Source of the DNA: Bacteroidales bacterium
GTDB taxonomy: Bacteria; Bacteroidota; Bacteroidia; Bacteroidales; DTU049
Direction: 5' to 3'
DNA length: 64,000 nt
Assembly: GCA_012520175.1 (NCBI GenBank)
Contig: JAAYOU010000001.1
Span: 14,544 to 78,543, forward strand
The position numbers and the translations under genes were made by a program. Shown here piece after piece: positions 1,300 through 49,360 of the stretch (positions are counted from its first letter, which is position 1; every line of letters starts with the position of its first letter). The notes under the pieces were generated by a model. It did no database searches. It was not told where the DNA came from and saw only the letters and a program-made list of their open reading frames with translations.

Positions 1300-1574
1300 T
1301 TTAGTGTTGAGTGTTAAGTTGCGGCGGGCGGACGTAACCACCTGTATATCAACAACTTAGGCGGAGCCGCCACACACACAAAGCTGTCACTGCTTATAAA
1401 TATATGATTATCAACGATTTAGGCGGAGCCGCCACACGAAGCTGGTGCTACCGTAACCCTCTATGTATCAATAACTTACACGGGCGACAGACACAAATCA
1501 GACTAACACCTCGCAACCACTTGATTATCAGCGCCTTATACAAAACCGACATACTAAAAACTAAAAACTCAACA
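1300..1574. repeat. Intergenic repeat cluster R1: 4 palindromic units plus heptamer modules
   Basis: Units with TGATTATCA-type cores at 1333-1359, 1405-1413, 1452-1482 and 1522-1530. GC-rich ggcggagccgccacac occurs twice (about 1360 and 1421). gtgttga/gtgttaa heptamers at 1303-1318 and, in reverse complement, at 1555-1575. Confidence 0.85.
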
Positions 1575-3119
1575 CTATTCTTTCACAAATTTAGTTGCTT
1601 TGTCGCCTATACGTACTATATACATGCCGGCGCTAAGTTGTGAAATATCTATGCTACTTTGCTTTTCGATAGCTCGCTCTGAATAAACTACTTTGCCTGA
1701 CAAGTCGCTGATAGTGATTAATTCATTAGCATTTTCAGAAATTACATTTATAAAATTGCTAGCAGGATTTGGATAAACATTCATATCTTTTGCAACTATT
1801 TCGTGGTTTTCTACATCCTCAGTGCTCCATTGGCTATCGAAAAATAGCTTAGTTGAACCATTGTAATATTCAAATGCAAAACAAGCTTTATTATTAGAGG
1901 GGTTAATATCCACCACTGGAGAATAATACCAATCATATCCTGTAGAGGTTGAAGAAACATCGCCTATTTTTAACCAATCGCCACCAGCTAAGTCTTCATA
2001 GTACTGCACACTGTGAACTAATTTATATTCGTCGTTTTCTATTGTGCAGTAAACAAGCAAATAGTTATTTAGGTTTTTATCGTATGATAAGTCAGGGCAT
2101 TCTTCATCTATTGCGCTTGAAGCAGACACAAAGTACCAAGATATATTATCCAACGTGTGATTATCAAGATCATATCCAGCTGTAGGAACAATTTGCACAA
2201 TATCCCAATCTACTCCTTCAGTATAATTAGAGTAAACAATCATAAAGTTGTACAGTTCATCTAGTTCGTTGTTGCATAACCATTGAATTTTTGGTTGCAT
2301 AGTTTTATCAGTAGCAGAAAATTTTTTATTTACCTGCAAAGCATCTGTAGCGTAATCTCCGTCTGCCACAGCTGCTATAAAACCTATATTTTCTTCACTT
2401 TCTTTATCCATTTCAAACACAATACCTGCCATAGGATAATAACTAGATGCTTTAGCTTGCCCAATAGATAAGTCTAGAGCACCAAATTCTGAATTAGCTT
2501 TAGTGTACATTTCTTTTTTAGTAAAAGCAACACCTCCATTCGTAGAATATACATAATCTATATGACCATCGTTGCCAGTATTATAACTTAATGCAAAACC
2601 TATAGTGAATGGTGCCCAAGAGCCTTCTGGCGAGCGTGCATTAGTAGATATGGCTGCGTCTTTGATTATCGTGCCAGTATATTCTTCATTTTTATATACA
2701 ATATTAAAAACACTTGCATCGGCATTAAGTTGATATAAATACACCCCAGCATCTCCTGTTACAGTATTATTCACAGCTCCTAAAAGCCAAATAGAGATGT
2801 TTGATGGCTCGTTGCCTGTTACCACTAAATCAAAACCTCCTTGTTTGTAGTCATCAGATAAATTGAAATTATTGATTTTTTCGAAAGTTTCGCCACCGTC
2901 TGTCGAACAATAGATAACTACACTATCTTGTTCTGTAGGGTGCCCATACTTGTTCATTAGCACATATATCCAGCCATTATCGGCTACGGATATTTTTGGT
3001 TTAGCCCAAAAAGCTCCATCGCATTCGTGCAATAATATATCGTCGGCAAATCTTTGAGACTGTGCGGTCATTACTCCGCAAAACATGATTCCAATTAGGA
3101 ATAAGTAAATTTTCTTCAT
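1575..3119 (-). CDS. Secreted BNR/Asp-box-like protein with T9SS C-terminal sorting domain (paralog 1)
   Basis: Signal peptide MKKIYLFLIGIMFCGVMTAQ. Asp-box-like STDGGETF and STNGGVAF. C-terminal VYPNPASNFINV...LSAGMYIVRI, typical of a T9SS type A CTD. Confidence 0.8.
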   Translation of the reverse strand: MKKIYLFLIGIMFCGVMTAQSQRFADDILLHECDGAFWAKPKISVADNGWIYVLMNKYGHPTEQDSVVIYCSTDGGETFEKINNFNLSDDYKQGGFDLVVTGNEPSNISIWLLGAVNNTVTGDAGVYLYQLNADASVFNIVYKNEEYTGTIIKDAAISTNARSPEGSWAPFTIGFALSYNTGNDGHIDYVYSTNGGVAFTKKEMYTKANSEFGALDLSIGQAKASSYYPMAGIVFEMDKESEENIGFIAAVADGDYATDALQVNKKFSATDKTMQPKIQWLCNNELDELYNFMIVYSNYTEGVDWDIVQIVPTAGYDLDNHTLDNISWYFVSASSAIDEECPDLSYDKNLNNYLLVYCTIENDEYKLVHSVQYYEDLAGGDWLKIGDVSSTSTGYDWYYSPVVDINPSNNKACFAFEYYNGSTKLFFDSQWSTEDVENHEIVAKDMNVYPNPASNFINVISENANELITISDLSGKVVYSERAIEKQSSIDISQLSAGMYIVRIGDKATKFVKE

Positions 3120-3239
3120 AGTTCTGTGTTTTTGTTACCCAATTATTTAATTTATTTTTATATAAGATTTATGCAAAAATATGTAAAAATATGTAAAATG
3201 CAAAAAATTGCGTTTACTAAGAGGTACTTTGTGGTTCTA

Positions 3240-3462
3240 ATTGCGTTTGTTGTGTAACTAACAGCCGCGTAGCAACTACTTAATTATCAACAGTTTACGC
3301 AGACAGACACATAGCATTAGACACTCGTAACCATCTATGTATCAATGACTTACACGGGCGACAGACACAAATCAGGCTAACACCTCGCAACCACTTGATT
3401 ATCAGCACTTTATATAAGGCCGACACACTAAAAACTAAGCATTAAACACTCAAAACTCAAAA
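3240..3462. repeat. Intergenic repeat cluster R2: 3 palindromic units plus heptamer modules
   Basis: Cores at 3282-3290, 3336-3344 and 3397-3405. Positions 3335-3407 are nearly identical to 1461-1533. The tail cactaaaaactaagcattaaacactcaaaactcaaaac is the reverse complement of GTGTTRA-type heptamers. Confidence 0.85.
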
Positions 3463-5010
3463 CTATTCTTTCACAAACTTAGTTGCTTTGTCGCCTATAC
3501 GCACTATATACATGCCGGCGCTAAGTTGTGAAATATTTATGACACTTTGCTTTTCGCTAGCTTGCTCTGAATAAACTACTTTACCAGACAAGTCGCTGAT
3601 AGTGATTAATTCATTAGCATTTTCAGAAATTACATTTATAAAATTGCTAGCAGGATTTGGATAAACACTCATATCTTTTGCAACTATTTCATGGTTTTCT
3701 ATACCCACGCTCCATTCAGAATCGAAAAACATTTTAGCAACACCTTCTGAAGAGTTGTAATATTCAAATGCAAAGCAAGCCTGTGTTCGGGTTGGATCAA
3801 TATCAACTACGGGAGAAAAATACGACTCCCAATTTGTAGATACAATAGAAACATCATCTACATAATCCCAATTCCAAGACGTTATTTCAGTATAATATCT
3901 CACATAATATTTCAAAACACTTTTATTATCATCTGATTGGCGGCAAACAAGCAGATAGTTGTTATAGTTTTTGTCAAATGATAAATCGGCATAATCTTCA
4001 TTAGTATTATGGTAAGCTACGGCATAACCAGACTCTAAATTATTCAACGTGTGATTACTAAGATCATACGCAGCTGTAGGAACAATTTGCACAATATCCC
4101 AATCTACTCCTTCAGTATAATTAGAGTAAACTATAATAAAGTTGTACAGTTCATCTAGTTCGTTGTTGCATAACCATTGAATTTTTGGTTGCATAGTTTT
4201 ATCAGTAGCAGAAAATTTTTTATTCACCTGCAAAGCATCTGTAGCGAAATTTCCGTCTGCCACAGCTGCTATAAAACCTATATTTTCTTCACTTTCTTTA
4301 TCCATTTCAAACACAATGCCTGCTTTTGGATAATAATCAGCTGCTGTAGCTTGTCCAATAGATAGGTCTATAGCGCCAAATTCTGAATTAGCTTTAGTGT
4401 ACATTCCTTTTTTAGTAAAAGTTGCACCGCCATCGGTAGAATATACATAATCTATATGACCATCGCTACCAGTATTATAACTTAAAGCAAAACCTATAGC
4501 AAATGGTGCCCAACCACTTTCTGGCGAGCGTGCATTAGTAGATATGGCTACGTCTTTGGCTGTTGTGCCGGGATATACATTTTGATATACCTCGCTATTA
4601 CTACTTGCATATGCATCAAATTTCAATAAAGCAAGTACAGCTTCTCCTGTTACTTCGTCATTACAAGCGTATGCAAGCCAAAGAATAATGTTTGATGGAT
4701 CGTTGCCGGTTACTACTAAATCAAGTCCGGCTTGTCTTTTATCTAAAATAAAATTTGAATTAAAGATTTTTTCAAAACTTACGCCACCATCTTTAGAACA
4801 ATAAATAGTTATGCTATCTTTTACCGTGAGGTCGCCATACTGATTCTTTAGCACATATATCCAGCCGTTATCGGCTACAGATATTTTTGGTTTAGCCCAA
4901 AAAACTCCATCGCATTCGTGCAGCAATATATCGTCGGCAAATCTTTGAGACTGTGCGGTCATTACTCCGCAAAACATGATTCCAATTAGGAATAAGTAAA
5001 TTTTCTTCAT
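3463..5010 (-). CDS. Secreted BNR/Asp-box-like protein with T9SS C-terminal sorting domain (paralog 2)
   Basis: Its signal peptide, central block and CTD are identical or near-identical to those of 1575..3119. Two internal blocks are diverged. Confidence 0.8.
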   Translation of the reverse strand: MKKIYLFLIGIMFCGVMTAQSQRFADDILLHECDGVFWAKPKISVADNGWIYVLKNQYGDLTVKDSITIYCSKDGGVSFEKIFNSNFILDKRQAGLDLVVTGNDPSNIILWLAYACNDEVTGEAVLALLKFDAYASSNSEVYQNVYPGTTAKDVAISTNARSPESGWAPFAIGFALSYNTGSDGHIDYVYSTDGGATFTKKGMYTKANSEFGAIDLSIGQATAADYYPKAGIVFEMDKESEENIGFIAAVADGNFATDALQVNKKFSATDKTMQPKIQWLCNNELDELYNFIIVYSNYTEGVDWDIVQIVPTAAYDLSNHTLNNLESGYAVAYHNTNEDYADLSFDKNYNNYLLVCRQSDDNKSVLKYYVRYYTEITSWNWDYVDDVSIVSTNWESYFSPVVDIDPTRTQACFAFEYYNSSEGVAKMFFDSEWSVGIENHEIVAKDMSVYPNPASNFINVISENANELITISDLSGKVVYSEQASEKQSVINISQLSAGMYIVRIGDKATKFVKE

Positions 5011-5149
5011 GACTATACTTTATTTTGTTGACATTTAAGTTTTGACAAAAATAAGAAAAAATTTTAAATAAAAATATATAAACACTTTTTAGGGGCTAAC
5101 TATGCTTGCTATATATCCTCCCACCACGTGCATAAACATGATTTTTAAA

Positions 5150-5300
5150 TTATGCATTATTGATGATTTACACCCCTCCACACACAACTCGCTGATTATC
5201 AACAATTTAAGCGAAATAACTACAACACAATCCCATGATTACCAATAACTTACAGCAGGCGACACGACATACGTAAACGAACACCATCTCAACAAATTAC
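5150..5300. repeat. Intergenic repeat cluster R3: 2 palindromic units
   Basis: ctgattatcaacaattta (core 5193-5201) and catgattaccaataactta (core 5236-5244), with GC-rich flanks (ccctccacacac, caggcgacacgac). Confidence 0.7.
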
Positions 5301-5345
5301 AATGCCATTTTCAAACAAAAAAAGCTGCAAAGAACAGCCTAAGTG

Positions 5346-12189: not shown

Positions 12190-12194
12190 ATAGG

Positions 12195-12415
12195 TTTGTT
12201 GTGCAATAGTGTTTTTGGACGCAGCAGTGGGCGGGCGTAACTTGCTGATTACTAGCAAGTTATGAAGTCAAAAGTATTGCGGCGGGCGGGCGTAACTTGC
12301 TGACTATCAAGACTTTAGATGGGCGGACGAACAATAAGCTGAAGCAGACAGACGAGCACAACCATCTGATTATCAATACTTTACACAGATGAACGAGCAA
12401 TAAAATTGTAAAACT
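12195..12415. repeat. Intergenic repeat cluster R4: 3 palindromic units
   Basis: gggcgggcgtaacttgctgattactagcaagttatg forms a 9-bp perfect stem taacttgct/agcaagtta (core 12246-12254). Two further cores lie at 12301-12309 and 12367-12375, flanked by gcggcgggcggg. Confidence 0.85.
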
Positions 12416-12565
12416 TACACTTTCCTAATATTAATCAACTCATAATTAAGTAGTTATAAAACTTCACAAAAACATGAAAAAGCAAAATTTGTATCTTATA
12501 AAAAATCACATATTTTTGGGACAGTATCGGATACTACGATTCAGTATAGCTAATCTACAACTATT

Positions 12566-22671: not shown

Positions 22672-23358
22672 ATGTTTATTGAATACAGGGACATTGGTAA
22701 AATAGGCTACAAGCCAGCTTGGGAATACCAGCAAGAACTTTTAGACAAATTAGTATCAATGCGCAAAGAGAATGATTACGCATCAAATCCTTTTGCTGGC
22801 TGGTTTTTAGCTGTGGAACATCCGCATGTATATACATTAGGCAAAAGTGGCAATGAGCAAAATATGTTATTAAACATTATGCAATTGCACGCAAAAAATG
22901 CTGAATTTGTGCACACAAACAGAGGCGGAGACATCACCTATCACGGACCCGGACAAATGGTTGGCTATCCAATAATAGATTTGGACAAATTGCATCTTTC
23001 CGTTAGAAAATATATTTTTTTAATGGAAGAATCAATTATATCCGCAATGTCGGCATACGGAATTAATTGCGAACGCATGGAAAACGCTACTGGAGTGTGG
23101 ATAGATGCAAATATTAAAGGGAAAGCGCGCAAAATTTGTGCAATTGGAGTTAGAGTTTCACATTTTGTAACTATGCACGGATTTGCCCTAAACATAAACA
23201 CAGATTTATCTTATTTTAATTATATAAATCCATGCGGCTTTGTTGATAAAGGCGCTACATCTATGCAAAAAGAACTTGGCAAAGAAATGGACGAAGAAAA
23301 AGTAAAACTGCTTGTTTTTGAAAAATTTTCGGAGCTAGTTACGGGGAATACTAAATAA
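22672..23358 (+). CDS. lipB: Octanoyltransferase (lipoyl(octanoyl) transferase)
   Basis: EHPHVYTLG, RGGDITYHGPGQ, KICAIGV and HGFALN motifs. The track start at 22648 overlaps tRNA-Thr, so I trimmed to the ATG at 22672. Confidence 0.9.
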   Translation: MFIEYRDIGKIGYKPAWEYQQELLDKLVSMRKENDYASNPFAGWFLAVEHPHVYTLGKSGNEQNMLLNIMQLHAKNAEFVHTNRGGDITYHGPGQMVGYPIIDLDKLHLSVRKYIFLMEESIISAMSAYGINCERMENATGVWIDANIKGKARKICAIGVRVSHFVTMHGFALNINTDLSYFNYINPCGFVDKGATSMQKELGKEMDEEKVKLLVFEKFSELVTGNTK

Positions 23359-23374
23359 ATTGGCTTTTGAAGCT

Positions 23375-24056
23375 TGCTGCCTGCTCAGATTTAGCGCTGC
23401 TGTACCCACATAAATTGTTGATAATCAAGGAGTTATGTCGCGGCGACTTCGCGTGGTCGCGGCGACGTAAGGCTCTGATAATCAGGTAGTTATAAAATAG
23501 TGTTGAGTGTTAAGTGTTAAGTGTTGAGTGTTGAGTGTTGGCTCGCTATTCGCTCGCTATGCCGCGTAAATCGTTGATAATCAGCGAGTTATGGGTAGCA
23601 GCTTCATGTGGCGGCGGCTTCGCGTAAAGTGCTGATAATCAAATAATTACACTTATTGCTAAACTGAATAACTTTTCTGCAAAATTTTTTGTAAATTTTA
23701 AAATACAAAAAATTTTGCAGAAAGAATTTGCGAATAAGTTTTTATCACTACTAGCCTGCATGACAGCCCCACTTATATAAGCCTTTGATAATCAGTGAGT
23801 TACGAGCCGCCGCTTTACCTGTCTCAGTTGCTTACTTTGCTTGTTTGTCCGCATAAGTAACTGATTATCAGATAGTTATGGTGGCGACTTCAAGTGGGCG
23901 CGGCGACGTAAGTTGTTGATACACAGACAGTTACGAAAGCAACAGTCTCTTTCAAACTTTATAAACTTTGCAACTTTATACTCAATCAGTTACAAAACCG
24001 TGACCAAATCAGATAACATTATGACAATCAATCAATTACAAACACTCACCCAAACC
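23375..24056. repeat. Intergenic repeat cluster R5 (largest): 7 palindromic units, a heptamer array, a long palindrome and CTTTCAAACTTTATA modules
   Basis: TGATAATCA-type cores at 23419-27, 23476-84, 23575-83, 23633-41, 23786-94, 23862-70 and 23916-24. Each is preceded by GC-rich (g)tggcggcg.c..cgtaa and followed by agtta(t/c)g. Confidence 0.9.
23500..23541. repeat. Tandem heptamer array (GTGTTRA) x6
   Basis: gtgttga gtgttaa gtgttaa gtgttga gtgttga gtgttgg, followed by the direct 9-mers gctcgctat tc gctcgctat. Confidence 0.9.
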
Positions 24057-27000
24057 CTACATCACATCTACCACTGATGCTGAAAACTCATTGATATTAA
24101 TGTAAAAAACATGTGCAGACTCAACCTGTATGCCTGCCTTAGAAAGCATTTCTACATATTCCAAAACCTGCTGTTTATGCTCATTTAGCTGTCTGCCCGT
24201 CTTAAAATCTATTATTTTATACTTATTTTCAGCATTAAAAATCATTCTATCAGGACGCAGCAACAGATTTTGGGTGTCAACTATTTCTCTTTCATTCAAA
24301 ACAAAATTTTTCCCCGGAAATGCAAATGAAAAATTATCAATCAAATAATTAAAAAATTTCACATAGTTTTCCTTTTGAGATTGATGGATATATCCGCTGT
24401 TTACAGAAAAATTCACAACTTGCTCCACATCATTTTTATCATTAATCTGCGAAATTATTTCATGAATGATTTTCCCTTCCATAGCCGATTCCCTAATAAT
24501 AGCACTATCATATTCCACTTTTTTTCGCAAAGTTCTTAATGGCTTATTAGGATTTATGGTGAAATTCTTAATGCTAATGCTATTTTCAACAGATTGCTTT
24601 TCCAATATTTTTTCAGAAAAATCACCAAGCGTATATTTCTGATAATCAGCAGATTCCTCTATGGAGAAATCTAATTTTTCGCTTTTTAAAAAGTTATACA
24701 GCATTATTTCAGAATCGTTGCTAGAAAGAGATTTCCCTTTGTCTAATTTTTTATTTGCAAAAGAAAAAACAAATAATTTTTCTTCGGCTCTAGTGGTTGC
24801 CACATACATCAAATTAATTGTATCCATGCGACTTTTAGAGCTTTCAATATTATATAAATCTTCTATTATTTTTGAAGAATTATTTTTAGAATAATTTATA
24901 ATGCTATACGGAATGTACCATTTTTCCTTGTCAACAATATGCCAAAACTTACTTTTTGAAATATTATTAACCTCATTTATATTGAAATATGGAATTATAA
25001 CTATCGGGAATTGCAGTCCCTTAGAGCTATGTATGGTCATAACATTTACAGCATTGGCAGTTTCAGGAACGATTACGCTTGTTTTAAGTCCGTCTTTAAG
25101 CCACCAGCCCCAAATATCATTATGCAGAAAACCAATTTTGTCTTGAATTTTCATTATTTTTTCCCTCAAAAAGAGCAAGAAAAATCCGCCTTCATTAGAA
25201 ATATCTAAAAATTGAATTATCAAATCAATTTCGTCAGATGGTGCCAGCAAGTTGATGTTTTCCTTTGAAAAATCGGCATTTAGGTCAACTAATTTTTCTA
25301 ATAAAACTTTTCCTCTTTCAGAGTTTTTTATTGCAATAAAATCATCAAAATTGGGCAATACATCCAAATTTAGATTTGCACATTTACTAAGCAGCAGATA
25401 TGTTTCCACAGCGTTTAAATCGTCAGTTGGGCAATGTATTAGCCTGTAAACGCACATAACTAATTTGCAATAAAGCGAAGTTGCGAACTGCAATGTCTCC
25501 CTCGAAACCACAGGTATAGGCTCGTTTTGGCTCATTAAATATGAGCTTATCTTTGTTCCAACATAGTTTTGGCGAGTTAATATTGCAATATCATTAAAGC
25601 TATAGCCATTTTCTACACATTTGTTTATTAAATTATAAATATCGCACAGCCACGCTTCCTCAAGTTTTGTAATTTTATCATTATAAATCCTGCATTCCAC
25701 ATAGCCTTCGGCTTTTTTAAACGGAATCTGCTTTACGCTATTATAAACATTTGAATAAATATCATCTTTTTGCGCCTCGTCATCATTCCAATTTTTTATA
25801 GCCGTGTAAAAAGACGAGTTAAACTCAACAATATTCTTTTTAGAACGATAATTAAATTCTAAATTTTCAAGATTGAAATTCTTTTCTAAAATTCTTTCAA
25901 CATCGCTATCATTATCGGTTTTATCATACAGCTTTGGCAAATTGAGCATTATTTCTACATTCCCGTTTCGCCACCTGTAAATACTCTGCTTTGGATCGCC
26001 AACTAGCCAAGATGAATTATTATTTGAAATAGATTCATGTATGAGTGGCAGCAGGTTTTTCCACTGCATCAGGCTTGTATCCTGAAACTCATCAATCATA
26101 ATAGTTTTAAAACGGCTCCCAGCCCTAACATAGATAAATGGCACAGGCTCATTCATAAGCACTTCCCTAATAATCCTATTGAAATCAGATACAGGCAAAA
26201 TGTTATTTTCTGTTTTAAAATCTTCGCGCAACTTCCAAATATCGCTCAATAAAGCAACTATAGGAAATCCTTTTGCAATCAACTTTCCGTATTTCAACTC
26301 AGAAATTTTGTCAATGCAATCCAAAAGAATGCTGCTAATTTCATTTTCTACTTCAGGATTTTTTACATTCAAAAATTCGGCATTTTTCAGCAACTCAAGC
26401 ATTCTATCGGACAATGGACGCGCATCAAAAGAAGCCTTCAAGTTTTTTATATAATTGAAAATCGTGGTAGCATTTCCTTTTTTAACAAAATCATCGTTGG
26501 AGAGATTGTTTTTTTCTAAAATTTCATCAATTAACGCTAATTTGCTATGAATATCTTTATTGAGAAGTCTTATTTTCGCAAGCAATTTATCAAAGGAAGC
26601 AATCAGATTTTCAGTGCCAAGTTCTAGAGCCGAATTCACTATTTCAATTGAAGCTTCTTCGGTCAGGTGATTTATCAAATTCAGCAAATTATCAGACAAA
26701 AGCAATGGACTTTTTTCGTCTTCAATCTGCATTCTGATTATATTTTTTAATATTTTGGTAATGTTTTTATCGCTATTTGCCTTGTCAATAATATTGCTTA
26801 CAACCAATTCGTTTAGCTCATCATTGTCAATACTCACCTCATAATTAGCTGGCAAATATAGTTCGTGTGCGAAACTGCGAATTATTCTTTGCATAAAGCT
26901 ATCAATGGTGCTTATATACAAATCAGAATAATTATGTAAAATATATTTTAATGTGTCAGCGGCTTGCTTTTGGATTTCCTCTTCAGAATATGTTTTAAAA

Positions 27001-41142: not shown

Positions 41143-41421
41143 ATGAAAAAAGAATATATTGCGGAACTTTTCAAGCAATTTGAAGATGCTTGTTATGATT
41201 ATGAGGGAGTAGAATGTTGGAGTGCAAGAGAGCTACAAGGCATTCTTGGATATTCTCAATGGAGAAATTTTAAAAACGTAATTGATAAAGCTCAAAAATC
41301 ATGTAAACAAGCAGGTGAAGACACTAAAAACCATTTTGCTGAATTCAGCAAGATGGTCGAAATTGGGAGCGGTGCGCAAAAACGCAATATAAACTCTCGC
41401 CTTTTGGGAAGAAATACATAA
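41143..41421 (+). pseudogene. Truncated DinD-like (DNA damage-inducible protein D) N-terminal fragment
   Basis: ECWSARELQGILGYSQWRNFKNVIDKAQKSCKQAG...HFAEFSKMVEIGSGAQKR parallels the first ~90 residues of E. coli DinD (from memory). Full-length DinD is about 3 times longer. This ORF ends after unrelated residues. Confidence 0.55.
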
Positions 41422-43444: not shown

Positions 43445-44467
43445 TCATTCATTAAAATTCATTTGTGCACGAATTTGAGCAATTTCTTGTATTAACTCTT
43501 CTTCAGTAGGGATGTAAAGTTTATATTTTGTGGCAAATAATTTTTGACTATCATTTAAAATAGAGAAACGAACCTCTGCTTTATCTTTTTCTTCGCACAA
43601 TATAATTCCTATTGTAGGATTATCTCCTTCTGTTCGTTTCAATTCATCATACATCCGTACATACATATCCATTTGCCCAATATCTTGATGTGTAAGTTTT
43701 CCTATTTTCAAATCAACCAAAACAAAGCATTTCAAAATGTAATTATAAAAAACCAAATCAATATAATAATGCGAAAGTTCTGTATTTATACGTTGTTGTC
43801 GTGCAACAAATGAAAATCCTTTTCCAAGTTCCAACAAAAATTTTTGCAAATTATCTATAATTGCTTGTTCAATCTGACTTTCATTATGTTTTTGATTTTC
43901 CTTCAAATCATAAAAATCCAACACAAGAGGATCTTTTAAGATAAAATCTTGCGGATTTAAAGAAAGTTGTTTTGAATTTTTGGAATTCAACTCATTCAAG
44001 CTTTCTTTATGTGTTGAAATAAGCCTTTCATAATAATGTTTATCTACTTGTTCATCTAAAAATCGCGTATTCCAAGCATTATCAGCTGCTTCGTTCATGT
44101 AAAGTTCTCTTGCTTTAGGATTTTCCACTCTGATTAACGAACGATAATGCGTCCAACTCAATTCTTTACGCAATGCGTAAACATTTGGAAATTGCTGATA
44201 AAATTTACGCATATTGGTAAGATTAACATAAGTAAAACCTTTTCCAAATTCTTTTTGCAAACGCTCTGAAACTGACATTAATAGTCTTTTGCCATATTGA
44301 GCATACTGCTCTCCAGCTTGTTCTTCAACGATTTTTCTGCCTATATGCCAATAAGTTTCAACCATTGTAAAATGAGCAGTTTCATAGACTTTTTTACGAG
44401 CATTTAAAATCAATTCTCTTGAGTATTGATACAAATTGCTGTTGTCAATATTTTCAATTTCTAGCAT
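43445..44467 (-). CDS. DUF1016 / YhcG-family PD-(D/E)XK nuclease
   Basis: N-terminal YhcG-like region (ARKKVYETAHFTMVETYWHIGRKIVEEQ; MRKFYQQFP). C-terminal nuclease core IDLVFYN...FVLVDLKIGKL. The track start at 44485 is a TTG. The ATG at 44465-44467 lies 5 nt downstream of the preceding stop. Confidence 0.85.
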   Translation of the reverse strand: MLEIENIDNSNLYQYSRELILNARKKVYETAHFTMVETYWHIGRKIVEEQAGEQYAQYGKRLLMSVSERLQKEFGKGFTYVNLTNMRKFYQQFPNVYALRKELSWTHYRSLIRVENPKARELYMNEAADNAWNTRFLDEQVDKHYYERLISTHKESLNELNSKNSKQLSLNPQDFILKDPLVLDFYDLKENQKHNESQIEQAIIDNLQKFLLELGKGFSFVARQQRINTELSHYYIDLVFYNYILKCFVLVDLKIGKLTHQDIGQMDMYVRMYDELKRTEGDNPTIGIILCEEKDKAEVRFSILNDSQKLFATKYKLYIPTEEELIQEIAQIRAQMNFNE

Positions 44468-44472
44468 TGTAA

Positions 44473-44694
44473 TTAATTTGAACAAAAATCACCTTCTGTT
44501 GTAAATTTATCAAGTTTATCAATAATTTGATCTGCGTTAATGTCAAAACCTATATCCCTAAGAGAATAAATAACATATACTAATTTTCCATATGCCTTCT
44601 CTCCTGACTTTGAAAGTCCTGCATATTCTAAGTACGGTTTTTTAGCTCCAAGTTCTTGTAAAACTTTAAATAAAGCATTACTATCTTCCAACAT
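44473..44694 (-). CDS. 73-aa hypothetical protein, translationally coupled between two nuclease genes
   Basis: Its ATG at 44692-44694 overlaps the upstream stop (ATGTTGGAAGATAG, a 14-nt overlap). Its stop lies 5 nt before the next ATG. No recognisable domain. Confidence 0.55.
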   Translation of the reverse strand: MLEDSNALFKVLQELGAKKPYLEYAGLSKSGEKAYGKLVYVIYSLRDIGFDINADQIIDKLDKFTTEGDFCSN

Positions 44695-45607
44695 AATTTT
44701 TTGCTTTTTCAGTTAATGAATAAAGTCCCCTGCCTGTCCTTCTAAAAAGATGCATATTATCTATGTGCATACTATTATCTTCGTGTTTATTTAATTCACC
44801 TCTAATTGTATTAAAAATAGTACCCATTTTCATTTTTAATTTCTGTTCTTCAACTATTTGAGGAATTTTAACATACAATTCTTTAAGTGAAACTTCGTTT
44901 ATTCCTAATTTATTTTTTTCTAAAATAAACTCAATAATAATTTTTTTTAAAGACGGAACTGTACCTGGCAATCTTAACTCTTCTTCCTTAAGTTCCTTTA
45001 TTTCTTTTTGAATACCTTTGTCAGAAACACTTTCTGCTTTTTCAATTTCTTTTTTTATCCCTCCGTATTTTAAAATGTATTCTCTACTTGGCTTAAAAAC
45101 ACTATCTGTGAACTTGATTTCGTTATAGATTGCTTGTAATTGAGAAAAATACTTTGGTTTGTCTTCTCTAAAAACACTATTTACCTCAAAATTAGAAGTT
45201 AACCCACCTCTTGTCAAATTTGAAGAACCAATTACTGAAGTAAATTTTGTGTTTTTTGAAACAGCAGTTTCAAACAAATAAATCTTAGGATGAAAAATCA
45301 AATCATTATAATTATCTCGTTTGTCTCCAAAACAATAAAAATTAAAATTTTTATAAGAATCTTCTATTCCTCTTAATGCCAATAAAGCTTTTACATCAGT
45401 AGTTTTAAAATCAAGTCCAACAATAATTTCAATTATGGCATTATTCACAGTCATAGCATATTCAAAAGATTTAAAAATTTCATCAATACCTGTTTTTCGT
45501 ATAAAAGCAACAGCTATTTGTACTCGAGTACTTTCTATTAATTCACTTTTTAAAACATCTACAAGCGAATAATTTGTATTAGATAATATTTGAATTTTTT
45601 CTACCAT
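44681..45607 (-). CDS. Single-HKD phospholipase-D-family nuclease (NgoFVII/BfiI/Nuc-like) with a C-terminal HARE-HTH-like winged helix
   Basis: HKD motif IFHPKIYLFE...VIGSSNLTRGGL (H at residue 111 of the track ORF). The C-terminal ~80 aa (KKIIIEFILEKNK...SLKELYVKI...LFRRTGRGLYSL) resemble HARE-HTH. The track start at 45622 is a TTG; I prefer the ATG at 45605-45607. Confidence 0.8.
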   Translation of the reverse strand: MVEKIQILSNTNYSLVDVLKSELIESTRVQIAVAFIRKTGIDEIFKSFEYAMTVNNAIIEIIVGLDFKTTDVKALLALRGIEDSYKNFNFYCFGDKRDNYNDLIFHPKIYLFETAVSKNTKFTSVIGSSNLTRGGLTSNFEVNSVFREDKPKYFSQLQAIYNEIKFTDSVFKPSREYILKYGGIKKEIEKAESVSDKGIQKEIKELKEEELRLPGTVPSLKKIIIEFILEKNKLGINEVSLKELYVKIPQIVEEQKLKMKMGTIFNTIRGELNKHEDNSMHIDNMHLFRRTGRGLYSLTEKAKNYVGR

Positions 45608-45924
45608 AATATTAAACTGCAATAAATTATCTTATATTCAAATCTTTATATTTTTTTCATAAACAAAAAATTTTTTTGGTATGAACTCAAAATAAAACCC
45701 GTTTTCACCATCACATACTTATCCGAACTAACTTTATTATAATTTTTTATGTAGAAAACACCAAGTTATCGCAATATATTCACCAAATGCAGTTGTCATT
45801 CTACTTATAAAATTAAAATTGTCAATTTTTGACAAATTTAAGTAAAAAATTTAGTTTAGTAAAAATTTTTATTGTGTTATATAAACAAACTAACATGACT
45901 GTAGTTGCTTTATAAAAGCCAATA

Positions 45925-46135
45925 ATAATCAGCAAGTTAGAGCAGCGAACAGCCTACATGGTGCAGTGACGTAAAGCATTGATAATCAATAGGTTATGTG
46001 CGGCGGATGCTATGTTTATCTGTCTCGCCCCGCTCGCTTAAAGTGTTGACAATCAAGGAGTTACAGGGTCGCGACCGTTTCACCTGCCTGCTCGCATAAA
46101 ACACTGATAATCAAGAAGCTACAAATATAGGCAAA
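45925..46135. repeat. Intergenic repeat cluster R6a: 3 palindromic units
   Basis: Cores at 45980-88 (gacgtaaagcattgataatcaataggttatg), 46047-55 and 46105-13, with GC-rich spacers (gcggcggatgc, gggtcgcgaccg). Confidence 0.85.
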
Positions 46136-46149
46136 AGTTATTGCTCTCA

Positions 46150-46497
46150 CTTATGTGTACTTCTGCTTTCAGCGAAAGTACTTTTGCTCGGTAATACCGA
46201 AATAAATTTCGCTATTACTCTCGCGTATCAGTACTTTTCTTTTTCATTGCAAAAAGAAAAGATACCAAAAGAAAAGCTATTCGCGGGAGAATTTACCTGC
46301 GCAAACGGCAGCCACCAGCCACAGCCAAAAATAACTCGCTGATAGGAATTTTTATTAAATTATTCCAGCTCAAACAGACTTTTGGCATTCGCCGTTTTTC
46401 TTCGTTAATGTTTTTTTGATTATATTTTTACGAAGAAAAACTTCGCCAACCCTGCCTTGCCGTTTGCTTTTTCAGGTAAATTCTATTGCGAAGTTTG
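46150..46497. other. Highly structured non-coding element: 2 short hairpins plus a ~220-nt nested long hairpin
   Basis: Hairpin gtaataccgaaat-aa-atttcgctattac (46191-46219, 12 of 13 bp paired). Hairpin cttttcttttt-cattgc-aaaaagaaaag (46235-46262). Outer inverted repeat agaatttacctg..gcaaacggca (46288-46310) against tgccgtttgc..caggtaaattct (46459-46483). Inner inverted repeat gtttttcttcgt (46394-46405) against acgaagaaaaac (46430-46441). Confidence 0.6.
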
Positions 46498-46499
46498 GC

Positions 46500-46615
46500 T
46501 ACTACCTGTCGTGTGCTTGTGTCCGCCCGCGTAAGTCGCTGATATACAGACAGTTATGTGCTGCCGCCCGTATAAAATCTTGCCTCAGACGTAAGTAATT
46601 GATAATCAATTTTTA
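46500..46615. repeat. Intergenic repeat cluster R6b: 2 palindromic units
   Basis: gtccgcccgcgtaagtcgctgatatacagacagttatg (core 46540-48) and cagacgtaagtaattgataatcaat (core 46600-08). Confidence 0.8.
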
Positions 46616-46677
46616 TTTCACACATTTTTTAGGGCAGTATTTCTTTAATTATCTAAAACTTATGTTACAAGCTGTGC

Positions 46678-48399
46678 TTAATTCAGCACTTTTTTTAATT
46701 CACTTATTAATAGTTCTTTTCGCTTTTCAATATATTCCTCAAAGTTTTTCAATTCTAAGTCTACATTTGGGATTAAATGACTTTCTAAGAATTTTTCCTT
46801 ATCGAAATTTTGGGTTTGCTCATCTACCCATTCTTTCAACGATTTGTCTTTTTTCGACATATTTTCATTTGCATCCAACATTTGAAGATTATAAATAGAA
46901 TTATAAGTCCACCATCCATATTTTTCCTTCAAACCGTCAGTCAAATTATCATAACTTGCTGCTGGATGGATGTGGTCTTTATGAAAGTTATTGTTTTTAT
47001 AATCAAGGTTTGGATATAAAACTGAAAGTATTGAAAATGTGTATTGGTCGTCTTTTTGAGAGGACAATAAGTCTTCAATAAATTCATCACCAACAGTCGT
47101 GTCTTTCTTTATATTTTTATTTATATCGTTTACTGGAAATTCTGTTATTTCAGGTTTAATTTTCAAGTTCTTAATGTCTGATGTAAAAGCTTTTCTTATT
47201 TGAGTTAGAATAGAATCTGCTTGACCACCAAATATTTTCTTAATCAATACAATATGCAACCATTTTTTTATTATTTCCCGTTCTTCCTTAAATTCAATTT
47301 TAGTTGAGTAATCTCTATATATTTGCTTATGATATAAATAATAAACAATCGGAATTATTGCATTCTTAGAAGTCAAAGTATAATCTGTAAATCCGTATGT
47401 TTTCAATAAATCAAAGGCAGATAATATTGCATCTCTAATTTTCTCCCATTCTGTTTCAAATTCTTTTGCATTATCCCTTGAAAAATTAGTAACTCTAAAT
47501 TTAATGTCTTTACTGTATAAAAAAAGGAACGTTTTGAGAACTAAATCTTTTGAAATTGAAAAGCCTTTATCTCTGACGGAATCAACAAGTTTATGAATTT
47601 CCTTTCTAGCATCTTTTTCTGTCCAATTTGCAACTGCAATTGACATAAGCAAATCAGAAAAATTTAAAGGCTCTCCACCACTATTAATTCTAATAAAGAT
47701 ATTTAGGGCTTTATCCAAATCTTGCTCTTTTTCAAGAAAATAATTTATGATTCTATCTGAATGAATTACTTCCTGCAAACGTGCCAAAATATCAATTGAA
47801 AATTCAGAAAGTCCATTGTCAGTTACATACTTATTGAATTTAGATATATTTTTTAATTCTAAAATTTTACCGACACGAAACCATTTATCTTTATAAATTT
47901 CTGCTTGTTTAGTGTCAGAGTCTTTTAAGAAGCTAAACTCATAAGTTCTACCATCTTCTTGTTCTTCAAGTGTTGATGCAATATTCAGATATAATCTTCT
48001 TGTTGGGATACTCCATTCTGAATTTTCCCATTTTCTGCGATATTCTTTATATGCATAGCTACCCTTTAGTCCCACATACAAAGAAGTTAATCTTTGTTGT
48101 CCGTCAAGAATTGCATTAAAAGACCCCATTCCATCAGTTGAAATTTCTTCATTATGAGTTTTGTATCTCTCTCTATATTCGTTAATGAATTTGTAAAATC
48201 TGTAGCCACTTACAGATGCTCCTTCTACATTCCAAAAAAGAAAAGAACTAATTGGATAATTTCTCATTAAAGAATCAAAAAGCCATTCAATTTTTGAACT
48301 TGACCAAACAAATTCTCGTTGAATAGCTGGTAATAAGAATTTATTATTTTCTATATTTTCAACTGCTTCAGCTATAGTAATTGGAGTTTGAAATGACAT
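46678..48399 (-). CDS. DUF262 + DUF1524 (GmrSD-like) nuclease, candidate type IV modification-dependent restriction enzyme
   Basis: N-terminal DUF262/ParB-like region (FLLPAIQREFVW, YPISSFLFW, DGQQRLTS). C-terminal His-Me-finger-like region (HKDHIHPAA ... NLQMLDANENMSKKDK). Confidence 0.85.
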   Translation of the reverse strand: MSFQTPITIAEAVENIENNKFLLPAIQREFVWSSSKIEWLFDSLMRNYPISSFLFWNVEGASVSGYRFYKFINEYRERYKTHNEEISTDGMGSFNAILDGQQRLTSLYVGLKGSYAYKEYRRKWENSEWSIPTRRLYLNIASTLEEQEDGRTYEFSFLKDSDTKQAEIYKDKWFRVGKILELKNISKFNKYVTDNGLSEFSIDILARLQEVIHSDRIINYFLEKEQDLDKALNIFIRINSGGEPLNFSDLLMSIAVANWTEKDARKEIHKLVDSVRDKGFSISKDLVLKTFLFLYSKDIKFRVTNFSRDNAKEFETEWEKIRDAILSAFDLLKTYGFTDYTLTSKNAIIPIVYYLYHKQIYRDYSTKIEFKEEREIIKKWLHIVLIKKIFGGQADSILTQIRKAFTSDIKNLKIKPEITEFPVNDINKNIKKDTTVGDEFIEDLLSSQKDDQYTFSILSVLYPNLDYKNNNFHKDHIHPAASYDNLTDGLKEKYGWWTYNSIYNLQMLDANENMSKKDKSLKEWVDEQTQNFDKEKFLESHLIPNVDLELKNFEEYIEKRKELLISELKKVLN

Positions 48400-48460
48400 G
48401 TTTTTCCTTTTTAAATTTCTATATTATTTGATTGGCACTCTGTTTCTTTACATTGCTTGT

Positions 48461-48537
48461 AACGTCTTATTTCCACCACAAATATACAACATTCGTAAAT
48501 ATTAAACTTATAATATTCGTATATTTTTTGCATTAAA
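48461..48537. repeat. Direct repeat copy 1 (promoter-like) upstream of the GmrSD-like gene
   Basis: 48481-48530 equals 49081-49130 with a single mismatch. On the minus strand it carries TATATTTG (a TAnnTTTG -7 box, complement of 48478-48485). Confidence 0.8.
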
Positions 48538-48556: not shown

Positions 48557-48994
48557 TCATTTTTCTCCGAAAGTATATCTTATCCCCCACAAACTTCTAA
48601 TATTTAAGTTGCTTTCCACAACTATCTCAGGTGTAAGCTCAAATAAAAGAGAGATCTTTTTAAAATCCTGTAGAGGGTAAATCTCAATCTGTGCAGGAAT
48701 CGTAAATGCATATATGTGGTCAAATTCACGAAAAGGTCCTGCATTTAGCCCTAATCCTACAGAGAATTTATGATAAGTTTTTGGCTTAAAATTAAAGAAA
48801 ACATCAATTTCCATCAATATGTCATCAATTGGTCTATTCACAAACGTTTTTAATTCTCCACTAATCAATTTATTCTGGCTAGTATTTATCCCCAAGGCAT
48901 AAATTGAATAACAGGTAACGCCCATTTGAGAATAAGAATTTACCGATAAAATCAGTAAAAATGTAATTGCAATCAATACAAATTGTTTTTTCAT
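48557..48994 (-). CDS. Small secreted beta-rich hypothetical protein (possible small outer-membrane barrel)
   Basis: Signal peptide MKKQFVLIAITFLLILSVNSYSQ with alternating hydrophobic strands. No domain recognised. Confidence 0.5.
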   Translation of the reverse strand: MKKQFVLIAITFLLILSVNSYSQMGVTCYSIYALGINTSQNKLISGELKTFVNRPIDDILMEIDVFFNFKPKTYHKFSVGLGLNAGPFREFDHIYAFTIPAQIEIYPLQDFKKISLLFELTPEIVVESNLNIRSLWGIRYTFGEK

Positions 48995-49060
48995 GATATA
49001 ATTGTTTAGTTAAATTTATTCCGTCTGTTTCACACTATACGCTGTGTTTGCATTTGCACT

Positions 49061-49138
49061 AACGTCTAATTTACGTAACAAATATACAACATTCGTAAAT
49101 ATTAAACTTATAACATTCGTATATTTTTTTGCATTAAT
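49061..49138. repeat. Direct repeat copy 2 (promoter-like) upstream of the 145-aa gene
   Basis: Exactly 600 bp from copy 1, with the same TATATTTG box (complement of 49078-49085). Confidence 0.8.
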
Positions 49139-49184
49139 AATAGTTGTTATATGTCGCTGTAAATCAATTAAATAAAATAAATAA

Positions 49185-49360
49185 GCAAGTTATGGGGGCG
49201 TCCGCGTAAGTACTTGATACTCAGATAGTTATGCAGCCGCAGCCACTTTCAAACTTTATAACTTTGTAAACTAATAGATTGATACACAAATAGTTACGAG
49301 CCGCACGCCCCAACTAAACACTAAAAACTCAACACTAAACACTACTTTCAAACTTTATAC
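49185..49360. repeat. Intergenic repeat cluster R7: 2 palindromic units plus CTTTCAAACTTTATA and heptamer modules
   Basis: gggggcgtccgcgtaagtacttgatactcagatagttatg (core 49215-23). gattgatacacaaatagttacgagccgc (core 49280-88). ctttcaaactttata occurs twice. aacactaaaaactcaacactaaacac is the reverse complement of heptamers. Confidence 0.85.

Follow-up and report, generated by a model that had tools for sequence, protein, structure and literature searches.

Small intergenic repeats, among them repetitive extragenic palindromes (REPs), bacterial interspersed mosaic elements (BIMEs) and the REP doublets termed REPINs, are well studied in Proteobacteria but hardly in Bacteroidota. This report concerns a family of 29-bp units that occupies seven intergenic clusters (R1–R7), one of them at 23359–24056, in a 64,000-nt, AT-rich stretch of DNA (approximately 32% G+C; contig JAAYOU010000001.1, hereafter the window) from an uncultured Bacteroidota bacterium. 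The unit is a candidate binding site for a protein of the integration host factor (IHF)/HU type, and several described systems resemble it in part.

In Escherichia coli, elements of the BIME-1/RIB-RIP type are arranged as REP y, an L linker with an IHF site, and REP z1; the L linker of BIME-1 frequently holds that site (PMC3333891). The arrays described here are likewise intergenic mosaics near gene 3′ ends, in which GC-rich palindromic pieces are combined with an IHF-consensus site, and they too occur in many copies and vary between strains. They differ in that the IHF-like site is itself the conserved repeated unit, double and palindromic, and in that the GC-rich pieces are short heterogeneous linkers without the GTAG foot. 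The units, moreover, stand head-to-tail in arrays of up to seven, no REP-associated tyrosine transposase (RAYT) is known for them, and the family belongs to Bacteroidota and phages, not to enterobacteria. By analogy, the closest E. coli counterpart would be the IHF-binding linker of BIME-1/RIB rather than the REP itself.

The REPIN–RAYT systems of Pseudomonas and enterobacteria share with the units the doublets around a short spacer, the lineage-specific populations and the intergenic location. REPINs, however, are single-stranded DNA hairpins with compensated stems and a GTAG tag that a flanked RAYT copies; here neither a pairing constraint nor the tag was found, and a RAYT was found neither in the window nor in approximately 800 kb of loci. 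The lambda attP H′ site and the IHF sites of integrative elements have in common with the unit the sequence WATCAR-N4-TTR, a 9-bp kink spacing and a location with the tRNA/att core on one side and the integrase on the other. In lambda, a heterodimer binds an asymmetric site made up of one consensus half and an A tract, whereas the site predicted here carries the consensus on both halves. In lambda attL the IHF H′ site is placed between the core and int, and we take this site to read TTGCTTATCAA across the equivalent 11 positions.

Two further systems are comparable. The stoperators of cluster A mycobacteriophages also distribute dozens of copies of one protein-site-like motif across short phage intergenic gaps, but they are 13–14 bp long, asymmetric, oriented with transcription, repressor-specific in each phage and absent from host chromosomes. 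Coxiella QMITE1 and other miniature inverted-repeat transposable elements (MITEs) with IHF sites resemble the present family in being non-coding, dispersed and marked by a conserved IHF consensus (PMC5896051). QMITE1 is approximately 400 bp long, with 21-bp terminal inverted repeats, target-site duplications and a single, internal IHF site (PMC5896051), whereas no terminal inverted repeats or duplications were seen here and the IHF-like site itself is the repeat. Of the MITE hallmarks, neither an insertion sequence or transposase nor target-site duplications were noticed, the empty-site comparison falling short of single-element resolution.

An intergenic family of 29-bp units

The intergenic repeat family is real. 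Its core, TGATWATCA, occurs 19 times in the window compared with 1.24 expected. A 29-nt search pattern (CGTAA-N5-TGATAATCA-N4-GTTAYG, at most three mismatches) yielded 28 matches at about 21 distinct sites, and none in 100 shuffled sequences. A position weight matrix (PWM) derived from these sites returned about 25–26 sites (26 counted) at a score of at least 12, with 0–2 in shuffles. The unit takes the form YRTAA-N5-TGATAATCA-N4-GTTAYG. An earlier note, made by reading the sequence, had described an abundant family in seven clusters, with GC-rich arms and a mosaic, BIME-like organization. These points are confirmed, the core coordinates being accurate within 1 nt and the mosaic consisting of GC-rich linkers, heptamer tracts and an approximately 420-nt dispersed module. 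Most of the copies then listed also stand, although that at 46600–08 is a half unit without the right GTTA and that at 49270–98 is weak (score 12.5).

Strong sites are confined to seven gaps between genes (1281–1574, 3120–3462, 5011–5345, 12190–12565, 23359–24056, 45623–46677, and 48995–49360). The sole coding-region match in the window is a weak site at 24630, within uvrD. When the window is taken together with a contig of a close relative (L127), 35 of 37 units fall outside genes in sequence that is 84% coding, which upholds the placement of units only between genes. Their location near gene 3′ ends is likewise upheld. Units are present in 3 of 8 convergent gaps, 7 of 49 tandem gaps and none of 9 divergent gaps. 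By PWM, the units of R1–R4 lie on the minus strand and those of R5–R7 on the plus strand, with near-uniform orientation inside each array and a unit-to-unit spacing of mostly 55–67 nt. With respect to the alternation known from BIMEs, the window arrays thus have one orientation and recurrent linkers (types A and B); doublets in phages and metagenome-assembled genomes (MAGs) were called as mixed, but their units are near-palindromic.

The family matches nothing in Rfam or in the literature strings searched. Rfam searches of the window, the clusters and five related loci, at gathering and E-value thresholds, returned only tRNAs, besides low-score miRNA-like matches to AT-rich hairpins. Literature searches with TGATAATCA and 11-mers gave Fur-box and unrelated matches only, and no description of the motif was found in two REP surveys, being absent among them from the Bacteroidetes REPs in the supplement of Quentin et al. 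2018.

Conservation and base pairing

Alignment of 38 units from the window and L127 gives the consensus CGTAAnTCGTTGATAATCAGnTAGTTACG. Positions A4, A5, T11, A19, and T26 are invariant, T3, G12–A15, C18, and T25 are at least 90% conserved, and positions 6–10 and 20–24 are variable; conservation across TAA, T11–A19 and TTA ranges from 90 to 100%, so that in the window lineage the conserved blocks are TAA, YTGATWATCAR and TTR only. The mean column identity among repeats is 77%. Both arms are purine-rich on one strand, which makes the unit asymmetric.

The proposal that each unit folds into a hairpin is not borne out. Among the 38 units, pair 6–24 is unpaired in 32, pair 8–22 in 24 and pair 9–21 in 33. 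Arm cells are paired in 69.7% of cases, compared with 71.0% when partners are shuffled, and the covariation score is lower than in 493 of 500 shuffles. The hairpin given as an example (12239–12263) is indeed fully self-complementary, but it is an exception among the units. Arms of neighboring units pair at 2.2 and 1.9 of 5 positions, compared with 2.05 for random unit pairs. The doublet at 23405–23498 can be folded as a single long hairpin (−36.3 kcal/mol, z −5.1) because it contains conserved palindromic blocks and a GC-rich linker hairpin.

Two larger sets of units, from the genome and phage scans described below, were assessed in the same way. In the genome-scan units (n = 119), covariation is clear only at 9–21 (z 6.1) and 10–20 (z 3.9) and weak at 7–23 (z 1.6) and 8–22 (z 1.9), and the positions left unconstrained by the scan have a palindromic consensus (cTnAT...ATnAg). 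The phage units (n = 398) have values of z 4.6 at 6–24 and z 4.0 at 8–22, and both sets are otherwise essentially without compensatory change; 172 phage doublets showed no covariation, neither inside units nor between both units. The sequence CGTAAGTCGTTGATAnTCAACGASTTACG, the consensus of the phage units, is a good palindrome. Departures from it are uncompensated, and the palindrome therefore belongs to the consensus sequence and not to a selected helix. The tetranucleotide tags that define REPs (GTAG or CGTC; PMC3733652, PMC6006769) are absent, the foot of the unit being YRTAA/TTAYG. Window units lack T runs, and a consensus scan found no terminator-like site in 23300–24100. The unit appears to be a sequence kept in double-stranded form rather than as a hairpin.

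Correspondence to the IHF consensus

The conserved blocks of the unit spell YAA-N4-YTGATWATCAR-N4-TTR, in which either strand reads the IHF consensus, WATCAR-N4-TTR. The degenerate positions of the unit (10 = Y, 20 = R, 27 = R) coincide with those of WATCARNNNNTTR, and A/T or A/G variation among units falls at the W, R and R of the consensus. Matches to the IHF consensus number 39 in the clusters (3.5 kb), compared with 0.7 in shuffles. Outside the clusters they are at background, with approximately 16 in approximately 60 kb, 14.6 being expected for the whole shuffled window. Perfect double sites of the form YAA-N4-YTGATWATCAR-N4-TTR occur 11 times in the window, 10 times in L127 and never in shuffles.

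In IHF–DNA complexes, WATCAR is located between two proline-induced kinks 9 bp apart, with TTR in the flank (PMC1874591; bioRxiv 10.1101/382655). In TTGATAATCAA, precisely 9 bp separate the TT step from the AA step, as between the kinks of IHF-bound DNA. Overlap of the halves in YTGATWATCAR is the sole way to fit two consensus halves in one symmetric site, and selection by a symmetric DNA-wrapping homodimer would be expected to yield a 29-bp site in which four conserved blocks are separated by free spacers.

Occurrence beside tRNA genes and integrases

The motif occurs beyond the window, across Bacteroidota and phages, so it is not specific to one genome. An exact scan of one genome per species (CGTAA-N5-TGATAATCA-N4-GTTA) recovered at least 120 stretches. 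Among the matches listed, 89 are from Bacteroidota (Saprospiraceae, Microscillaceae, Cytophagales, Prevotella, and others), 7 from Fibrobacterota and few from Proteobacteria. In Proteobacteria, IHF binds asymmetric sites as a heterodimer. Wherever examined, units avoid coding sequence, and some genomes hold multiple copies, often as doublets 42–50 nt apart.

In 20 of the 120 loci listed, the unit follows a tRNA gene, starting 4–22 nt (most commonly 11) past its 3′ end. These genes belong to nine tRNA types and make up 20 of the 30 tRNA genes present in the loci listed. Several of the tRNA-adjacent loci have a tyrosine integrase on the far side of the unit, and others show none. As the order tRNA, unit, integrase mirrors lambda attL, with the unit where H′ lies, it is counted in favor of an IHF-type protein. 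Where copies adjoin tRNA genes in other genomes, they form perfect hairpins with T runs after them. In three Bacteroidales MAGs (L090, L100, and L117) a perfect-palindrome unit with its T run lies 4 nt past a tRNA-Leu gene, in conserved context and with no integrase in view; not all tRNA-adjacent units are obviously island-borne. Fibrobacter species (L004, L031, L056, and L099) share a single orthologous unit whose flanks are conserved; it occupies a divergent gap, with a gene for a very large secreted protein on one side and one for a 136-aa protein on the other, and resembles a conserved regulatory site more than a repeat.

Doublets in phage genomes

Scanning IMG/VR with the strict genome-scan pattern gave 106 stretches, 49 of which have at least three units. 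One uncultured phage clade carries up to 28 units per 12–14 kb, arranged as doublets. Its genes include terminase, clamp loader, DUF932, GP88, PhoH and an L5 gp82-like protein. The doublets surround GC-rich, often palindromic linkers, and their spacing peaks at 41–42 and 50–51 nt, for which a helical-phase reading is no more than suggestive. Phage units are outside open reading frames (ORFs) in 95% of cases and are found in 23% of tandem, 35% of divergent and 54% of convergent gaps.

Members of the clade include L154, L195, L142, L187, L225, L231 and approximately 30 other IMG/VR loci, in which unit doublets occupy a quarter to half of the intergenic gaps, some abutting TTGAC(A) boxes. A segment dense in doublets had no blastn match among GenBank phages, and its terminase is less than 30% identical to those of Bacillus and Clostridium phages. 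Three loci of a MAG labeled Enterobacterales (CAZSAT01; L011, L048, and L107) contain 8–17 units per 4–8 kb in the doublet format of the phage clade, and are probably phage contigs binned into the MAG.

Copying and turnover in the window lineage

The window sequence was found at 99.9–100% identity in biogas-fermenter and anaerobic-digester assemblies, and the source organism is present in digester metagenomes. The contig L127 encodes a LipB of 97% identity, with flanking genes at 96–97% nucleotide identity, and its 13 units within 18 kb form arrays unlike those of the window in number and content. Where the window has 23359–24056, L127 (8419–12047) has two extra, array-flanked genes between lipB and uvrD, one encoding a SecDF_P1_head domain and the other a Por_Secre_tail protein. 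The approximately 420-nt module is at a different locus in L127 than in the window. A third strain diverges from the window exactly at array borders. In L127 the synteny to the left of the tRNA-Pro/Thr–lipB block also differs, the arrays coinciding with breakpoints of rearrangement.

Relatives with LipB identities of 71–74% have no unit and no TGATWATCA in the 16–20 kb available from each. The right arm in the window lineage is a shared derived form, RGTAG in place of the ACGAS of phage units, which indicates that the window-lineage copies descend from one founder and were copied. The expansion in this lineage is shown to be lineage-specific, with fast turnover. Two of the R2 units, at 3326 and 3386, are copies of the R1 units at 1452 and 1512 (1452–3119 and 3326–5010 are 82% identical), and are present because a gene duplication carried the downstream region along. 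The duplicated gene encodes a secreted protein of approximately 515 aa with a type IX secretion (Por_Secre_tail) domain, of which L127 has further paralogs; type IX secretion sorting domains are present in several window proteins.

No transposase, integrase or Y1 signature was detected in the window, and the reported lack of a Y1/RAYT transposase there was upheld by motif searches and Pfam. A metagenome scan with a 20-mer from linker B gave a single chance match, without units. Metatranscriptome contigs left the array uncovered, at a coverage too thin to count as evidence.

A candidate cassette for an IHF/HU-type protein

Taken together, we favor, with confidence a little short of even, a reading of the unit as a dyad-symmetric candidate binding-site cassette for an IHF/HU-type protein, amplified in the manner of the E. 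coli BIME-1/RIB elements. The 29-bp unit would be a double-stranded site, with no hairpin, bound by a homodimer of the IHF/HU (DNABII) family that bends DNA. Its two IHF half-sites would overlap in YTGATWATCAR, the proline arms intercalating at the TT and AA steps, and the TTR blocks would be placed where the DNA flanks meet the protein body. A founder copy may have become joined to GC-rich linkers and then been amplified in the window lineage, giving arrays and doublets with a period of approximately 55–67 bp downstream of genes and in convergent gaps, after which selection would have retained only the protein-contact positions. The arrays would then present clustered sharp DNA bends, acting as nucleoid or supercoil organizers or as insulators between transcription units. 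They also behave as hot spots prone to recombination. DNABII binding, array function and the mode of copying are what we infer from the sequences.

Several observations weigh against this reading. No convincing DNABII (HU/IHF) gene was found by motif searches in the window, the genome loci or the viral loci. The consensus used for comparison is that of the proteobacterial heterodimer; to our knowledge, no consensus site is known for any Bacteroidota DNABII protein. Conservation extends past the IHF consensus to a G at position 24 and to the CG/YG ends, phage units are variable at position 16, which weakens one half-site, and the tRNA-adjacent copies are terminator-like, being perfect palindromes followed by T runs. 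A protein site also leaves the multiplication of units, and their doublets with GC-rich linkers, unexplained.

A broader proposal, which we regard as possible but doubtful, is that Bacteroidota, together with Fibrobacterota, and their phages share an undescribed dyad-symmetric high-affinity site for a putative homodimeric IHF-like DNABII protein. The site would serve as an architectural module in three settings: beside tRNA genes and the att arms of integrases, in doublets between phage genes and, after amplification in some lineages, in BIME-like arrays. That would make it the phylum's first consensus site for a homodimeric IHF-like DNABII protein, and would define a class of repeat with a protein-bending site as its unit. 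Were IHF/HU-type binding true, the motif would allow host-factor sites to be predicted in integrative elements and phages of Bacteroidota, help to annotate att sites beside tRNA genes, and offer a handle on a phage clade that punctuates or organizes its genome with approximately two sites per kb. The family provides a concrete, searchable 29-bp motif for Bacteroidota, and a unit apparently kept for its double-stranded sequence directs attention to nucleoid proteins rather than to Y1 transposases or RNA decay. Coincidence of the arrays with strain-level rearrangements matters for MAG assembly and strain comparison.

Alternative explanations

Dyad symmetry and a conserved sequence without covariation would suit the operator of another dimeric or tetrameric regulator, of host or phage, copies of which might punctuate or silence transcription as cluster A stoperators do. 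The density of units in the phage clade and their 95% location outside coding sequence, the TTGAC(A) boxes abutted by some doublets, and the single orthologous copy in a divergent promoter gap of Fibrobacter species are in keeping with this idea. Phage repressor specificities usually diverge fast. Here, one consensus is found in distant phages, integrative elements and chromosomes of several Bacteroidota orders and Fibrobacter. A 29-bp, four-block site is, furthermore, unusual for a helix-turn-helix dimer, whereas it is predicted by an IHF-type wrap, and no DNA-binding gene recurs beside the units, the recurrent neighbors being DUF932, GP88, PhoH and the L5 gp82-like protein. We consider such an operator unlikely.

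A unit or doublet of REP/REPIN type would be a single-stranded DNA hairpin recognized and copied by a Y1 (RAYT/TnpA_REP-like) transposase whose single gene copy lies outside the window. The palindromic, intergenic units near gene 3′ ends, their doublets and arrays, the long fold of doublet 23405–23498, the lineage-specific expansion with fast turnover, and the resemblance of GTAAC...GTTAC to a 'double foot' all invite the comparison. Bacteroidetes, moreover, have RAYT subclasses of their own with atypical REPs (PMC6006769), and E. coli TnpA_REP requires a stem mismatch (PMC3333891), a feature that the recurrent G.G at 6–24 in phage units would mimic. Against these points, none of the data sets was read as showing compensatory change, and in the window lineage 4–5 of the 14 stem positions are mostly unpaired, so that single units cannot form stable hairpins. 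The GTAG/CGTC tag is missing, the GATAATC motif is absent from the published table of subclass 2.6 REPs, and the core is conserved across phyla, unlike REP stems. A Y1 signature was absent from the window and approximately 800 kb of loci (120 loci), in a search by crude regular expression for genes that, as RAYTs, are single-copy. This origin is decidedly unlikely.

The 29 bp could also be divided into an 11-bp arm, a 7-bp overlap and an 11-bp arm, as in the core-type site of a tyrosine recombinase, and the arrays would then be small exchanged cassettes comparable with plasmid dif modules or integron cassettes. Units do adjoin integrases at tRNA ends, the recurrent linkers and the approximately 420-nt module are unit-bounded at different loci in two strains, and units have a common orientation in each array, though tandem duplication explains the latter equally well. 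We nevertheless judge this very unlikely, given that the unit is outside the tRNA gene, whereas tRNA-targeting integrases usually cross over within it, that its center is near-palindromic and conserved across phyla, unlike an overlap region, and that neither a recombinase in the window or near its arrays nor ORF cassettes were found.

An RNA-level element (a terminator, a 3′ stabilizer, or an RNase III-type processing hairpin formed from a doublet) would account for window units near gene 3′ ends, for the perfect hairpins with T runs beside tRNA genes and for doublets that can fold into long duplexes, but is highly improbable in view of the absent covariation, window units without T runs and no terminator-like site in 23300–24100, an orientation of units independent of the direction of transcription (R2 compared with R6 and R7), the presence of units in divergent phage gaps, and the lack of an Rfam family match.

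Other identities were rejected more directly. The Fur box (GATAATGATAATCATTATC) has a 9-mer in common with the unit, but its spacing differs. The definition of the CGTC-tagged REP families (Di Nocera 2013) does not fit, and of the features of an enterobacterial-type REP hairpin the extragenic multi-copy location is present while stem complementarity and the GTAG/CGTC tag are both lacking. Sites of the dif/Xer and loxP-like kinds have an unlike spacing of arm and center. A clustered regularly interspaced short palindromic repeat (CRISPR) array is contradicted by the 77% column identity, mutually related spacers and absence of cas genes, and an integron attC/cassette array by spacers of 13–47 nt without ORFs and no integrase in the window. 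An intrinsic terminator was dismissed on the empty scan of 23300–24100, a stem with a T run being seen only in tRNA-adjacent copies elsewhere.

Organization of the individual arrays

All units of R1–R4 are on the minus strand. R1 comprises units at 1333–1361 (PWM 34.4, pattern match), 1395–1423 (PWM 26.2), 1452–1480 (core TGATACATA, PWM 25.0, duplicated at 3326) and 1512–1540, a perfect double IHF-consensus site (PWM 36.6). R2 consists of a unit at 3271–3299 (PWM 28.7) and the paralogs of the 1452 and 1512 units, at 3326–3354 and 3386–3414, both assigned by PWM and duplication. The R3 units, called by PWM, are at 5183–5211, approximately 135 nt downstream of tRNA-Lys, and at 5226–5254 (PWM 22.2). 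R4 has the only fully self-complementary copy, at 12236–12264 (pattern and PWM), and PWM matches at 12291–12319 and 12357–12385.

The units of R5 lie on the plus strand and match pattern and PWM unless stated; linkers are given without strand. Doublet 1 is formed by units at 23409–23437 and 23466–23494 around a hairpin-capable, GC-rich linker of type A (TCGCGGCGAC TTCGCGTGG TCGCGGCGA; 23438–23465). It is followed by the plus-strand heptamer tract (AGTGTTG)x6 at 23499–23540, which differs by one 7-nt copy in another assembly (L122), so that its copy number varies between strains. An exact pattern match at 23565–23593, a type A linker variant (23594–23622) and a unit at 23623–23651 come next. 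The interval 23674–23723, between the convergent genes, is an AT-rich, perfect 20-nt inverted repeat, 100% complementary, unstranded and not a member of the family; it may be a real terminator shared by the convergent genes, and the consensus terminator scan made no call there. Beyond it are a unit at 23776–23804, a linker of type B (GAGCCGCCGCTTTACCTGTCTC...; 23805–23851) with two further occurrences in L127, and a unit at 23852–23880 with a central T and an ambiguous orientation. Another type A variant (23881–23906) leads to the unit at 23907–23935 (core TGATACACA), after which the module ACTTTCAAACTTTATA is present twice on the plus strand at 23949–23980 and recurs at 49245–49271 and 49342–49360.

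R6 and R7 are also on the plus strand. R6 has an exact pattern match at 45970–45998, units at 46037–46065, 46095–46123 and 46530–46558 (each pattern and PWM), and the half unit at 46590–46618 (CGTAAGTAATTGATAATCA: left arm and core, without right arm). The unstranded, non-coding module of approximately 420 nt at 46146–46568 is unit-bounded and has a 90.6% identical copy at its other locus in L127 (10484–10903). It had no Rfam match and holds the hairpin CTTTTCTTTTTCATTGCAAAAAGAAAAG, which is also present downstream of lipB in the 74% relative L129. R7 is made up of a unit at 49205–49233 (pattern and PWM) and the weak unit at 49270–49298 (PWM 12.5). Heptamer tracts of the AGTGTTG or ACTAAAA type flank arrays at 1553–1577, 3448–3464 and 49313–49344, as well as at 23499–23540.

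Other features of the window

Defense-like genes surround R6, encoding a YhcG/DUF1016 PDDEXK nuclease (43445–44485), a PLD/NgoFVII-like nuclease (44681–45622) and GmrSD (46678–48399). An ORF with a Bro-N domain is located at 41143–41421. A 78-nt direct repeat, unrelated to the units (48460–48536 and 49060–49137, 91% identity), flanks a small ORF at 48557–48994. Farther downstream, an in-frame 153-nt tandem repeat (52462–52776; 2.1 copies, 88% identity) sits inside a 766-aa surface-protein ORF at 51877–54177 that has Big_3, fn3 and Lcl_C matches.

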